This document shows, in pieces, positions 14,771 through 35,390 of a stretch of 64,000 bases of DNA. Source of the stretch: an uncultured virus (IMG/VR IMGVR_UViG_3300028591_000120) (Duplodnaviria; Heunggongvirae; Uroviricota; Caudoviricetes). Location of the stretch: the IMG/VR virus record IMGVR_UViG_3300028591_000120, one strand, 5' to 3'. Every line of letters starts with the position of its first letter. Position 1 is the stretch's first letter. The notes beneath the pieces were generated by a model, which ran no database searches, was not told the DNA's origin, and worked only from the letters and a program-made list of their open reading frames with translations. The position numbers were made by a program, and so were the translations under genes.

Positions 14771-15105
14771 TCATGTAATTGCGTATAAGGCTATATTCGA
14801 TGCGTACAGCGAGTTTTATTTATGCTACCTTATACCTTTATCACTTGCAGCGTTAAAACGCCTTAGAATCACTTAAAATACGTTTTAATTTTTTTAACCA
14901 AATATATTTGCATAATATCAAAAAAAGTCGTACCTTTGTGGTGGGAAGGGTCAGGAGATGAGATGGCATCCCACGAGATGCCGCTAGTGTGTGGCATAAA
15001 TTGTTAAAATATTTAACTAAGTTAAAAAATGTAAATTGCTTGCACATATCAGATATTATTCGTACCTTTGTATCGTTAAAAGTTAAACCTCTAAAGTTTT
15101 TTATT

Positions 15106-15660
15106 ATGCAGTACACAGACTTAAGCACAAAGGTACACAGCCTTAAAAAAGGCCAACTTGGTGTAAACATTGTTGCAGTTATCAGTTGTGACAAAAAGTT
15201 CCTTGCATCTGGTAGTGGCTACATTGGTCGCGTTAAAAAGGTGACATTGGGCACAAACATTCGTCTCGTTTCTTATGAGGGGAAAGTTGCAGCCATGAAA
15301 GATTCTGACGCTTCATTTACCCCTGCTGCTCTCAAAGGTATGAAATGGGTAGATTATCCATATTTCAAGGAGAGTTTATCAAGTGGCAAACGTTACTTGT
15401 GCGTTCATTATCGCCCTTGTGACGAGCGCACAGAGTTTAGGTCGTTCTATCTTTTGGATGGCAGAGAAACAACCCCTATTGAGACGAGCATGATTGAGGC
15501 TCACATGAAGAAGTCTGGTTCTTACAGCGTAAAGCAAGCTTCTGTTGGAATTGTCAACGAAGAAGAACAGACAAAGGTAGTTCAATACGAAGTGGATGGT
15601 ATTAAATACTTCGGCACAGACAAAGCCTTGGCGACAGACCTTTGGAATGGGTTGAGATAA
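15106..15660 (+). CDS. Hypothetical early-type protein
   Basis: Promoter at 15063, ATG 15106, terminator ~15679-15706. Confidence 0.75.
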   Translation: MQYTDLSTKVHSLKKGQLGVNIVAVISCDKKFLASGSGYIGRVKKVTLGTNIRLVSYEGKVAAMKDSDASFTPAALKGMKWVDYPYFKESLSSGKRYLCVHYRPCDERTEFRSFYLLDGRETTPIETSMIEAHMKKSGSYSVKQASVGIVNEEEQTKVVQYEVDGIKYFGTDKALATDLWNGLR

Positions 15661-15951
15661 TAAGGAGGCAACAACGCAAAGGGTGAGATTAAAAGTCTCA
15701 CCCTTGTTGTTTATGTATATATATGTACTTATTTAAGTCCATAGTTGGTTGGATGTTTCATCCTTCTCTTCAGTACTGTAATCCCACTGCAAAGGTAGTG
15801 ATTTTTATTCAATGGCGCAAATTATTTTTATTAAAAAGTGTTAAGTAGAGAATAAATTATTTTTTAACATTTATTATATAGTATAATTTGCAAGATATAA
15901 ATATTATGTGTATTTTTGCAGTGTAAAACTTAAACAATATAGCATTGAGAT

Positions 15952-16242
15952 ATGGAAACGATTTTTTTAGTGATACAAGAGAGCAATGTTGATGGACAGA
16001 TTCTCATTAACATTACGCCTTGCAAGGACTTAAAGACTGCGAGGTTTATAAAGGATAAAGAAATTAACACATTGTTAAATGAAAGCCCCAAATACAAAGG
16101 GTTAGACCTTGATAAGGTTGAGCGCAATGATGATGATGATGGTGACTTCTCATTGGAGCGCGATGATGATAGCTTTTTCTTGAATTGTCTATATGACGAC
16201 TATTATGAGAAGATAGACATTATTGAAAAGCAAATTGTATAA
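15952..16242 (+). CDS. Hypothetical acidic protein
   Basis: Own promoter and terminator. Confidence 0.7.
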   Translation: METIFLVIQESNVDGQILINITPCKDLKTARFIKDKEINTLLNESPKYKGLDLDKVERNDDDDGDFSLERDDDSFFLNCLYDDYYEKIDIIEKQIV

Positions 16243-16560
16243 TAGCTGTTGGTTTCTGTTTACATAATAAATTACTATTTTAGACGAGGTTTTTTGTGAA
16301 ATCGTCTTGCTTGTGAAAGTGGGGCGATTTTTTTATATGTTTATCCGGTTAACATTTTTTAACTCATAAAAGTTGCATATATCGCAAGATTGTTGTACCT
16401 TTGTAGTGGGAAACCTGGTAAGGCATTTCGATGGTGATTGGTGGTTTATCTGTCACGACGGTGATTGGTGCTGCTGAATTATCAAAGCGAAAAAAGTTTT
16501 ATTTATTAACATTGTTTAGTAAAAATAATTTTGTCATATCAATATTTCTTTGTACCTTTG

Positions 16561-16704
16561 CCACGTCAAAAGATAAATAAGCAAGTGTTCTTGATTAGAG
16601 TGATTTGAAACAAGAGCGTGGGTCAAAAAGCCTTTAAGTTCTGCGCAGATTAAAGAGTGGCAAGGGCGTTAGCTTTTGCATTTCCCACAAAACATATCTT
16701 AATT
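16561..16704 (+). ncRNA. Candidate structured RNA, copy 1 (stand-alone)
   Basis: Promoter 16553, no ORF, terminator 16757; near-identical to 17024-17167. Confidence 0.55.
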
Positions 16705-17023
16705 GCAGAGGCAATTAAAAGTTAATACTTTATGCGATTTGTTTTTTTGTAGCATGGCGTGTGGCTTGTGAAAGTCGCACGTTTTTTTATGTATATATAT
16801 CATACGTTGGCTTGTGGTTCGTGCTGTGGAGTTGGCTTAACAAGTATGGCTGATTGTATTCTCCTCAGCGTCGCCTTCAGTACTGTATCCCACTGCAAAG
16901 GTACGATATTTTAGTCAATCCTGCAAATTATTTTTGTTAAAAAGTGTTAACTATAGAATAAATTATTTTTCAGGTTAAAAAATGTAAATTGCTTGCGTAT
17001 ATAAGATTTTCTTTGTACCTTTG

Positions 17024-17167
17024 CTACGTCAAAAGACAAATAAGCAAGTGTTCTTGATTAGAGTGATTTGAAACAAAAACGTGGGTCAAAAAACCTTTAA
17101 GTTCTGCGCAGATTAAAGAGTGGCAAGGGCGTTAGCTTTTGCATTTCCCACAAAACATATCTTAATT
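17024..17167 (+). ncRNA. Candidate structured RNA, copy 2 (5' leader of 17174 ORF)
   Basis: Duplicate of 16561-16704 including promoter. Confidence 0.5.
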
Positions 17168-17173
17168 ACGACT

Positions 17174-33366: not shown

Positions 33367-33720
33367 TTATTTCCACATACATTTCTCCTGATAATGTTGT
33401 TTCTTCTTATCATATTCAATGCGAACACCATTTCTTGACATTTCATTGAATGTTTGCAAGATTTCATATATTGTAATATCGTCATTTTCATCAAGATTCA
33501 TATACTTTCGTATTTCATCTTGCATTTCATTTGACTTATTTACAAACTCAATCTTGGGATAGTCCATGCAATAGTCACTACCTCTATAATTGGGGCAGTA
33601 GGCAAAGCCGTCATATATTTCAAACGTTAGTTTGTTCTTAAATCCTAGAATTGTTAATTCTTTTTCGGCAATCATTTTGCCGTGTAGCAATTCCAAATCT
33701 TCTCTTTTAATTCGTTCCAT
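33367..33720 (-). CDS. Hypothetical protein
   Basis: Minus-strand promoter ~33753. Confidence 0.65.
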   Translation of the reverse strand: MERIKREDLELLHGKMIAEKELTILGFKNKLTFEIYDGFAYCPNYRGSDYCMDYPKIEFVNKSNEMQDEIRKYMNLDENDDITIYEILQTFNEMSRNGVRIEYDKKKQHYQEKCMWK

Positions 33721-33822
33721 TATTATATAAAGATAAAAATTAAATAACTGCTACAAATATACAAAAAAAACATGGGAAAAATAATTCTCCCACGTTAATT
33801 AAAGTTAAATTCCCTCAAAAAC

Positions 33823-34095
33823 TTACTTTTCTCTCCAAACCCTTTTGAGTTCGTCAAGCTTGAATGACTTCTTAAAGACGTCCTTAAACTCTACGTCCTC
33901 TTTTGCAGAGTAGACCTCTACAATGTCATAGTTCCTGTTGTTGCCTGACACTGCAAGGGTTTTCTCATCGAAAGACCTTGCGGGTTTGGAAAACGAATCA
34001 AACACCACTTGGGCGGGCTTGCCCAAAAAACCTGTTACAACACCCACTTTGCCGTTTCTAAGAACAACAATCTGATTTTCCTTTAATTTTGCCAT
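33823..34095 (-). CDS. Hypothetical protein
   Basis: VVLRNG...YDIVEVY...VWRE. Confidence 0.7.
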   Translation of the reverse strand: MAKLKENQIVVLRNGKVGVVTGFLGKPAQVVFDSFSKPARSFDEKTLAVSGNNRNYDIVEVYSAKEDVEFKDVFKKSFKLDELKRVWREK

Positions 34096-34179
34096 AATTT
34101 GTTTCAGTGTTATTTAATTTTCACAATGCAAAGATACTACATTATTTTTATATCTACAAATTATTTCTATTAAAAAATG

Positions 34180-34830
34180 TTAATATTTCAATATTTTATT
34201 TTTTAACAAATCATTGTATGAATTTTCAGTTATATAATTAACTCCGGCACATTTCCTTAAATGTCTCAATGAATAAGTCTGATTCCATGGAGCTTTGACA
34301 ACCTTAAACTCTTTAACAGCCATCCAACCCTCAAATAAGGGCTTTAACTTATTAACCTTTTCAAGAGAGCATACTCCAGCGCCAAAATGCCCATCCCTCA
34401 TTTTGCAAACAAATACATATTCAAACTTGCCAACGTTCTTGTTTGCTTTCTTTTCAATAATGGTCTTGGAAACCCCACCTCCGACTGCACTTGTGCGTTC
34501 AATGGTAAGATTAAACTTGTCACTTATTTGCGCCGCCATTCTTTTCCACTCCCTACCATGAGAAGAAGTGTCCTTAATACCCTTATATCTAATATAATAA
34601 TGTAACATTTCATGCACAATGGTATTGATATAGGAATCCATGGGCCGGTCATAATAAATGCTAATACGAATTATGTTAACAGTTTCTCCCATCACTTTTC
34701 TACGCCTATATTGCCCCAACAATGACTTTGTTTGCATGAGTTCAAAATTTGGAACCGGTAATTCATTGTTGAATATCTTTTTATTCCATATATTAAACTG
34801 CTCTTTTATTTGAGGTATTGTAATACTCAT
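34180..34830 (-). CDS. SprT-like zinc metalloprotease
   Basis: WNKKIFNNELP...TIVHEMLH...HGREWK. Confidence 0.82.
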   Translation of the reverse strand: MSITIPQIKEQFNIWNKKIFNNELPVPNFELMQTKSLLGQYRRRKVMGETVNIIRISIYYDRPMDSYINTIVHEMLHYYIRYKGIKDTSSHGREWKRMAAQISDKFNLTIERTSAVGGGVSKTIIEKKANKNVGKFEYVFVCKMRDGHFGAGVCSLEKVNKLKPLFEGWMAVKEFKVVKAPWNQTYSLRHLRKCAGVNYITENSYNDLLKNKILKY

Positions 34831-34850
34831 AATATGCTTTTCTTTATTTA

Positions 34851-35090
34851 TTAAAAGCCAAAAGTGAACATATAATAATCGTTTATATCAAATAAACCAT
34901 CAACAGGATTTAATTCTCCAACAATAGCTGCTTCTGGAGAATCATAGCTGTTTGCATCAATCTTTATAATTGTGTAGTTGTCGTCATAATCCTCTTCGGC
35001 AACCCACTCTTCCAAATCCTTTTCGGTAAGATTTGCAACCATTTCCTTTGTATAAAAGGCTTTATCCAATAGAAATACTTTTTTATCCAT
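34851..35090 (-). CDS. Small acidic hypothetical protein
   Basis: Minus-strand promoter ~35118. Confidence 0.6.
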   Translation of the reverse strand: MDKKVFLLDKAFYTKEMVANLTEKDLEEWVAEEDYDDNYTIIKIDANSYDSPEAAIVGELNPVDGLFDINDYYMFTFGF

Positions 35091-35390
35091 AATCGTTGTT
35101 ATTTAATGTTTGACGATGCAAAGGTAATACATTATTATATTATATACAAATTTTTAATTAAAAAAAACGTTAATATAATAATATTTTAACAGATAGATTT
35201 ACACGCACTCTTCAGTCTCTTCAGTACTGTAATCCCACTGCAAAGATAACAATAAATCCACATATATACAAATTTAAAACGTTAAAATATATTAAATGAA
35301 TCATTTTTATTTTTTTAACAATTTTAATTTGTACATATAAAATATAATATGTACCTTTGCACACGATATTAAACAATTAACGATTAAATT

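Follow-up and report, generated by a model that had tools for sequence, protein, structure and literature searches.

Gene-less host-type promoters with helically phased, GC-rich strips recur at cassette borders of uncultured gut jumbo phages

An uncultured virus of the class Caudoviricetes, recorded as IMGVR_UViG_3300028591_000120, carries at positions 14931..35352 of the 64,000-nucleotide stretch analysed here (the window) a module of small genes, two transfer RNA (tRNA) genes and non-coding units, each with a sigma-A promoter and a terminator. The cassette genes are ORFans, without a Pfam or named PHROG match, and the first of them has five unnamed relatives and no Atlas match. They form two convergent blocks that meet near 33.1 kb, and the module is likely an early region. 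The source record is a virus fragment of 120,538 bp (36% complete), and the sequencing runs containing the stretch bear the labels sheep or bovine gut. Here we describe an element that recurs 17 times in this module: a promoter of the host type that begins at a GGG motif and leads into a GC-rich, non-coding strip. The element was first noticed in a reading made from the letters alone (the sequence-only reading); the back-to-back placement of its minus-strand copies, its helical phasing and its restriction-site-like words are additions of the present analysis.

The element and its placement in the window

All 17 sites, eight on the plus strand and nine on the minus strand, were recovered where the sequence-only reading had put them; each matches the pattern TANNTTTGYRGTGGGR, which had no match in 100 dinucleotide shuffles. 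They lie between 14,931 and 35,248, and a search of the 120,538-bp record returned no copy outside the module. The GC-rich, non-coding tag described in that reading was also confirmed, the GC content of +1..+45 being 0.47 at the elements versus 0.21 at other promoters. An open reading frame (ORF) of at least 45 amino acids starting no more than 70 nucleotides (nt) downstream follows 2 of 17 element promoters in the window, versus 36 of 49 other promoter-like sites, and both exceptional ORFs overrun the next promoter or terminator; ORFs within this distance were found in 2/17, 2/18 and 1/16 copies. The statement that the promoters lead to no gene has to be qualified for copies in tandem with a gene promoter, which would read into that gene because no terminator comes before the next promoter, and which are not strictly orphan.

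A terminator hairpin is found no more than about 220 bp behind 15 of the 17 copies, and each of the remaining two stands at the outer end of one of the convergent gene blocks; at least four terminator hairpins have no element. Two classes of placement can be recognized. Tandem copies precede the next promoter by 94-157 bp, and no terminator intervenes. On the plus strand these comprise, with ranges running from the -33 box to the end of the GC strip, element 1 at 14908..14994 (-7 box 14931, predicted +1 at 14943), which opens the module and precedes gene promoter 15063 by 132 bp; element 3 at 16373..16474 (-7 box 16396), 157 bp before promoter 16553, which serves a structured non-coding unit; element 6 at 17871..17940 (-7 box 17894), 108 bp before promoter 18002; element 8 at 19598..19677 (-7 box 19621), 120 bp before promoter 19741; element 9 at 21209..21272 (-7 box 21232), 110 bp before promoter 21342; element 11 at 22326..22394 (-7 box 22349), 118 bp before promoter 22467; and element 13 at 27320..27387 (-7 box 27343), 94 bp before a tRNA-Leu promoter.

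Convergent copies face a hairpin downstream of their own promoter and stand back-to-back with the next promoter. Element 2 at 15739..15820 (minus strand; -7 box 15797) faces the terminator ending at 15710 and is back-to-back with promoter 15911. The same arrangement, also on the minus strand, is seen for element 4 at 16806..16926 (-7 box 16903) with promoter 17016, element 7 at 19019..19099 (-7 box 19076) with promoter 19191, element 12 at 24404..24474 (-7 box 24451) with promoter 24565, element 14 at 27588..27664 (-7 box 27641) with promoter 27754, and element 15 at 31521..31605 (-7 box 31582) with promoter 31696, while element 5 at 17710..17806 (-7 box 17783) and element 10 at 22185..22261 (-7 box 22238) are back-to-back with elements 6 and 11. 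All nine minus copies have a plus-strand promoter at their back, 104-115 bp away. The sequence-only reading had tied placement to strand, with minus copies aimed at the preceding terminator and plus copies usually upstream of gene promoters. Its two arrangements stand, but as classes and not as strands: element 17 at 35196..35271 (minus strand; -7 box 35248) is a tandem copy 122 bp upstream of promoter 35126, as well as back-to-back with promoter 35352, and element 16 at 33027..33098 (plus strand; -7 box 33050) is a convergent copy that lies behind the terminator ending at 33000 and faces the minus-block terminator (33115).

The module has several other features of note. Many cassette terminators between 16290 and 27580 share the loop region CTTGTGAAAG or close variants of it. 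Positions 16553-16790 and 17016-17170 form a near-identical pair, each a promoter with a non-coding unit of about 150 nt; the unit at 16553-16790 has no ORF, ends in a terminator, folds better than its shuffles (z -2.9) and has no Rfam match. Behind promoter 32064, three tandem 107-bp GC-rich repeats (32121-32439) make a candidate array of structured RNAs, one repeat unit having a multi-hairpin fold (z -3.6) and no Rfam match. A repeat protein rich in Lys, Ala, Pro and Glu, resembling a histone-H1 tail, is encoded at 25813-26613 and is kept in the modules of all three phages compared below.

Distribution and turnover among related phages

Two related jumbo phages, one of them annotated as T4-like, carry the element. 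The first (G001, 401 kb) is syntenic with the whole source record (G000) over 115 ORF matches and has 24 copies in the homologous block, where the reversed pattern has none. It has T4-like replication genes, and Pfam scans of 193 of its 301 ORFs of at least 120 amino acids revealed gp23, a T4-type terminase, sheath, gp32, RecA, two sigma-70 factors and several methyltransferases. The second (G002, 317 kb) has 16 copies of a relaxed pattern. A relaxed pattern gave no copy in three other records, and blastn with one border returned short promoter matches only. No cultured relative was found, the best named capsid matches having about 40% identity. A metagenome scan added 185 loci. The GTDB bacterial genomes yielded 84 stretches, of which 80 were examined with their flanks, and the promoter context was present only on one 16.9-kb contig (four loci) and one 2.8-kb contig, both of which look like mis-binned phage. 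The element is clade-wide in uncultured gut jumbo phages. Separately, a freshwater Flavobacteriales bin (L322, L323, L326) contains a dispersed repeat of 200-400 bp with a similar -7 box, a G run and then a hairpin; its strip is unrelated. Strong Shine-Dalgarno-like sequences, unusual for Bacteroidota hosts, stand before genes at L009 (G001, about 364.4 kb) and L454 (7241-7290), and the G001 gene at L009 sits behind a GGG promoter.

Together with the window and G001, the metagenome loci gave 273 distinct copies, of which 39 with short or non-AT-rich flanks were removed; 209 distinct strips, most of them from gut-type metagenome contigs, were left once near-duplicates had been taken out. Bacteroidota sigma-A (sigma-ABfr) promoters are described, in the accessible text of PMC7366714, as TAnnTTTG at -7 and TTTG near -33 with an AT-rich spacer, and the element copies have this form. 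The TTG at -33, a box absent from the search pattern, has a single fixed spacing in 176 of 199 copies and is one base closer in 7 more, a conservation that shows an intact promoter maintained by selection. The -7 box and the pyrimidine-purine rule place the predicted +1 at the first G of GGG. From the predicted start onwards come GGGR, two to four A/T bases, CAG, often GAAGG at +12, and then the strip, which has a median of 49 nt and 53% GC; the first 20 nt are about 70% purine. The first CAG falls at +7..+9 in 174 of 209 strips, a preference that is partly selected because the metagenome scan demanded ACAG near the start; copies beside primary matches and those of G002 were free of that demand, and 12 of the 16 G002 copies have CAG near +8. 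The strips share no ORF, so that a leader-peptide reading finds neither a common frame nor a common length. The GTGGG(A) start that the sequence-only reading took as fixed does not hold for the whole clade: G002 varies in the four bases that precede the start, which there is GGG or AGG and can also be GGGC.

Strips are similar within a genome and different between genomes, also at the same border, and the -33 box, the AT lattice and the start motif are kept across the clade while the strips turn over. At the same border, different phages may have elements of different class and orientation, and in a related strain the strip of element 9 has gained 10 nt. Element copies have undergone copying and block exchange among themselves. 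Element-bounded cassettes have moved or been swapped among the three phages.

The module lies within a larger block flanked by conserved, non-coding brackets with TCCGG repeats. The left bracket (14515..14780), with TTCCGGAA repeats followed by a G-run/C-run hairpin, is kept in G001 and G002; the right bracket (39368..39640), which occupies an AT-rich gap, combines TCCGG repeats with a direct repeat of 35 bp. In the three phages the brackets (at 382.8 and 358.5 kb in G001 and at 16.06 and 41.05 kb in G002) are 25.0, 24.3 and 25.0 kb apart despite differing gene content. The bracketed block may be a terminal repeat or first-entering segment, with brackets that could be terminal-repeat ends, packaging signals or injection-stop signals. 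Genes just beyond the left bracket (L228, 10860-12300, in G001; L456, 15300-15900, in G002) are nearly free of G on the coding strand, an extreme skew.

The closest known arrangement is that of the promoter-early stem-loop (PeSL) cassettes of T4-type phages (PMC2839356, PMC4122927), which, as far as the accessible text of these reports goes, combine a repeated terminator, an AT-rich stretch and a host-type promoter between genes in a hyperplastic region of small ORFans, with gain, loss and movement of genes at the borders. Such an ORFan region in a T4-like phage is present here, as gp23, the T4-type terminase, sheath and gp32 of the syntenic G001 attest. A PeSL, however, has one promoter, at whose end stand the Shine-Dalgarno sequence and the start codon of the gene that it drives; the elements have neither, and their pairing with the anti-Shine-Dalgarno sequence is below that of shuffles. 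What they bring is a further, gene-less promoter, which sits between the terminator and the promoter of the gene, can point either way and is followed by a phased GC-rich strip. The suggestion of cassette-shuffling sites like PeSLs accordingly describes the borders as context, but leaves the extra promoter and the strip unexplained. In the literature open without subscription we found no description of gene-less phased promoters with such strips, and the element is a real, clade-wide and undescribed addition to a known PeSL-like scaffold.

Turnover of this kind could also mean that the element is a recombination handle and nothing else, a variant of the PeSL whose duplicated promoter and GC-rich strip spread by gene conversion and provide the crossover site for cassette shuffling, while its own transcription has no function. 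Strips homogenized within genomes but different between genomes at one border, and cassettes exchanged between elements as PeSLs exchange theirs in T4-type phages (PMC2839356, PMC4122927, in their accessible text), are what such a handle would leave. Strips that turn over while the start motif, the -33 box and the AT lattice stay conserved speak against it, and the ordinary terminator-promoter scaffold already supplies homology; we regard this explanation as quite improbable.

Helical phasing and tests for an RNA product

The element keeps a helical phase to its neighbours. Distances from tandem copies to the next promoter peak at about 89, 100, 110, 120, 131 and 141 bp (n=89, R=0.70, best period 10.45), and back-to-back distances at 102, 113, 123 and 133 bp (n=67, R=0.76); with the modal peak removed, R is 0.51 and 0.73, respectively. 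Element-terminator spacing has a weak phase (R=0.29, n=44). Within the strip, CAG beyond +13 recurs at 10.5 bp, near +18, +29, +40 and +50 (R=0.47 in tandem copies, 0.29 in others). Duplication of a unit was rejected as the source of this lattice, identity at a lag of 10-11 being 0.28 versus about 0.25. Since promoter spacing proceeds in 10.5-bp steps and CAG returns every 10.5 bp, a role at the level of DNA is indicated, and the element likely acts as DNA and not as RNA.

Position and phase could be explained if the element were a transcriptional helper or insulator, in which a second polymerase at the border either raises the output of the gene promoter or, pausing at the hairpin upstream, prevents read-through. 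Tandem copies would then be P1 promoters, back-to-back copies would act through a shared phased AT lattice or supercoiling, and the strip would be merely an escape-optimized, purine-rich runway. The border position behind terminators or at the outer ends of the gene blocks, the strong phase to the neighbouring promoter, the shared upstream TTAA lattice, the purine-rich first 20 nt and a runway of at least 48 nt from start to hairpin all agree with this. There are precedents of a sort in phage T7, whose first-entering DNA has tandem gene-less early promoters (A1-A3) about 125 bp apart and one leftward promoter (A0), and in the P1-P2 promoters of rrn operons: these, too, are strong host-type promoters without an immediate gene, in tandem at about 120 bp. 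They differ in forming one cluster and not one per cassette, in having no known conserved start motif or word lattice, and in not being interchangeable in orientation. In the collision-driven bidirectional terminators of Escherichia coli, converging polymerases trapped at a hairpin block read-through (bioRxiv 2022.10.23.513370), and a polymerase converging on a hairpin could do so without a U-tract; the accessible part of that report describes convergent gene pairs, and does not cover tandem copies or a strip.

Under such a role, though, tandem and back-to-back copies would act oppositely, yet one can take the place of the other at a given border. Good U-tracts are already present at the cassette terminators (41/44) and some hairpins do without an element, the elemental-pause consensus reaches a z of only 2.3, and CAG at +7..+9, the inner lattice and the excess of REBASE words reported below are left unexplained. 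Because it accounts for position and phase but not for words or interchangeable classes, we rank the helper or insulator below the restriction-based reading developed below, as a doubtful second choice. A decoy for UpxY/ops pausing was rejected on the same pause consensus.

Tests for an RNA product gave little. The mean fold z-score is -0.37, with 9% of strips below -2 and no conserved fold, and Rfam finds two tRNAs only in the window. Of 44 hairpins faced by convergent copies, 41 offer a U-tract to the cassette mRNA and 3 offer one to the GGG transcript; tandem copies lack a terminator, so that neither class gives the GGG RNA a defined 3' end. Decoys of the anti-Shine-Dalgarno type were rejected (duplex with the Segatella 16S tail -8.15 kcal/mol versus -8.77 kcal/mol in shuffles), as were mimicry of or antisense to ribosomal RNA (rRNA), with small and inconsistent z-values over four operons, and antisense to the phage's own genome, with matches at or below shuffles. 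No CsrA was found in G000 or G001, and a CsrB/RsmZ-type sponge was discarded (GGA 405 versus 369, no fold, no CsrA). A retron or the template of a diversity-generating retroelement was likewise discarded, no PF00078 reverse transcriptase being present in G000, a fragment, or G001. The proposal of a dispersed small-RNA array is weakened by this lack of fold, U-tract, tandem terminator and pairing partner. In the region 14,500-30,000, RNA-run contigs (three runs, two studies; at least 24 RNA pieces) cover several cassette genes; being assembled, these contigs cannot reveal starts, strand or short RNAs, and they speak neither for nor against an RNA from the strip.

Another RNA role would be that of a decoy factory: from about 20 strong promoters, unstructured RNAs with a 5'-pppGGG end, whether abortive, paused or trimmed, would be made in quantity and would sequester an RNA-binding or nuclease defence protein of the host. 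Position and orientation would be irrelevant, and phasing would only let adjacent promoters cooperate. Motifs locked to +1, the large RNA numbers that many promoters would give and the interchangeable orientation suit it, and for a few words avoidance is stronger on the sense strand of genes than on the antisense strand (GAAGG in G000, ratio 0.53 versus 1.05; TACAG, 0.70-0.79 versus 1.09-1.42). This avoidance is not general, however, and the inner 10.5-bp lattice, the missing fold and 3' ends, the failure to pair with the anti-Shine-Dalgarno sequence, the lack of a steady match to rRNA or to the phage's own genome, and the absence of CsrA and reverse transcriptase from G000 and G001 all count against it. 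We consider the decoy factory unlikely.

T4-type R-loop replication origins, where untranslated, unstructured transcripts starting with G remain on the template and prime replication and back-to-back pairs would fire bidirectionally, are suggested by the T4-like replication genes of G001, the GGG start, the purine-rich 5' end and the lack of fold. T4 origins, though, require an easily unwound downstream element, whereas the strips are GC-rich; G-runs after +5 are depleted (57 versus 109), and the G/C skew fades beyond +20. Origins of this type are very improbable here. The same holds for two further proposals of the sequence-only reading, polymerase traps that titrate holoenzyme and handles for transcription-driven DNA entry. 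Consensus promoters without a gene and the conserved block length speak for them, but about 20 sites cannot titrate the thousands of polymerases in a cell, purine-rich starts favour promoter escape, and the nearly equal frequency of interchangeable orientations fits DNA entry poorly.

Restriction-site-like words in the strips

The strips are rich in words that resemble asymmetric restriction sites. Of 120 exact asymmetric hexamers in the REBASE dictionary of Biopython, 12.5% are strongly enriched on the transcribed strand, versus 4-5% of control words with equivalent GC, last bases and purines. When the letters were relabelled in 23 other ways, which leaves the word structure of the strips intact, the true reading came first of 24, with an observed-to-expected ratio of 1.40 over the whole strip and 1.83 in +1..+24 (other relabellings 0.99 +/- 0.20). 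Palindromic sites are depleted in the strips (ratio 0.75); GATC occurs there once versus 39 times expected, and genome-wide once in G000 and not at all in G001 or G002. GAGATG, GGATAC and GAGGAG recur in the strips although each of the three genomes avoids them (ratios 0.11-0.64). Three of 12 asymmetric sites of enzymes that, from their names, we take to be from Bacteroidota are strongly enriched, and the P. intermedia motifs GGATG (z 9.0) and GGYGAB (z 2.1) are present in strips. Type I bipartite sites were rejected, none of the four avoided patterns being enriched in strips. The word signal is real, but it is not proof. GAGATG itself, avoided on both strands (ratios 0.33, 0.11 and 0.17 in G000, G001 and G002) and not among the Biopython REBASE exact sites hit in strips, is a candidate for an undescribed host restriction motif.

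A promoter that is needed, an orientation that is ignored, a helical phase that is kept and a turnover by block exchange argue together for a DNA element under host pressure. Our leading reading, which is tentative and carries less than an even chance, is that the strip is a polymerase-guarded anti-restriction bait for enzymes that methylate one strand. Host RNA polymerase would bind the gene-less promoter, start at GGG, and stay on or pass over the strip. The bracketed block would enter the cell first, and the words of the strip would be bound by host defence enzymes of the Type IIG, Type III or BREX-like kinds; the bound or firing polymerase would stop these enzymes from cutting or from communicating between sites. 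The strip could thus be guarded bait and roadblock while the likely early cassettes are expressed, and the phage would be protected from restriction. That this amounts to a counter-defence made of DNA alone, with asymmetric restriction or BREX-type sites set on one helix face under a dedicated host promoter at early-cassette borders and renewed by block exchange that tracks changing hosts, is a more doubtful proposition still.

Known phage strategies against restriction include avoidance of sites, orientation of sites (T7 and EcoP15I), site-free first-injected DNA and protein mimics of DNA (PMC6286503; PMC12455610; PMC12707154). The purging of palindromic sites from genome and strips is in keeping with these, with host restriction as the likely target. 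Known strategies remove or orient sites, however, and the accessible text of these sources does not describe the gathering of asymmetric sites under a promoter.

A number of observations weigh against the guarded bait. With degenerate sites included, the true reading ranks 2 of 24; the site excess falls within the zone that a bound polymerase would cover, with none beyond +21 (ratio 1.00, rank 18/24), and the hits GGATAC, GATTAC, GAAACA and TGACAG are frames of the start motif. Enrichment in strips and avoidance in genomes are weakly linked at the level of words (p 0.02-0.3; per genome p 0.07 and 0.57) and uncorrelated over all words, and the strips of G001 and G002 lack GAGATG, their most avoided asymmetric word. 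Sites repeated within one strip are opposite in 40 cases and same-way in 32, and asymmetric sites occur on both genome strands; Type III enzymes cut when sites lie on both strands (PMC12707154, in its accessible text). As the accessible text has it, first-injected regions normally lose restriction sites (PMC12455610). Weak avoidance, in turn, is compatible with the bait, being what is expected of Type I and IIG sites, which phages for the most part do not avoid (PMC6286503, in its accessible text). A phase may also be present among the six ordinary tandem pairs of gene promoters (R=0.61, p=0.11), so that the outer phasing may be a general packing rule, and the shared upstream TTAA repeats could impose the back-to-back phase; the outer phasing therefore shows that both promoters matter, and not what they are for. 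All p-values, moreover, are optimistic because copies are related. Even so, R-loop origins, anti-Shine-Dalgarno pairing, rRNA mimicry, a small-RNA array and titration fit worse than the guarded bait.

Selection holds a full promoter, a fixed start motif and a helical phase at about 20 places in these phages for no gene, where known PeSL cassettes need none of these. If the guarded bait is the true explanation, the element would be an anti-restriction device without a protein, and the sequence of a phage would reveal the methylome of its host. If instead the helper or insulator is true, the element would show how a phage arranges neighbouring polymerases.

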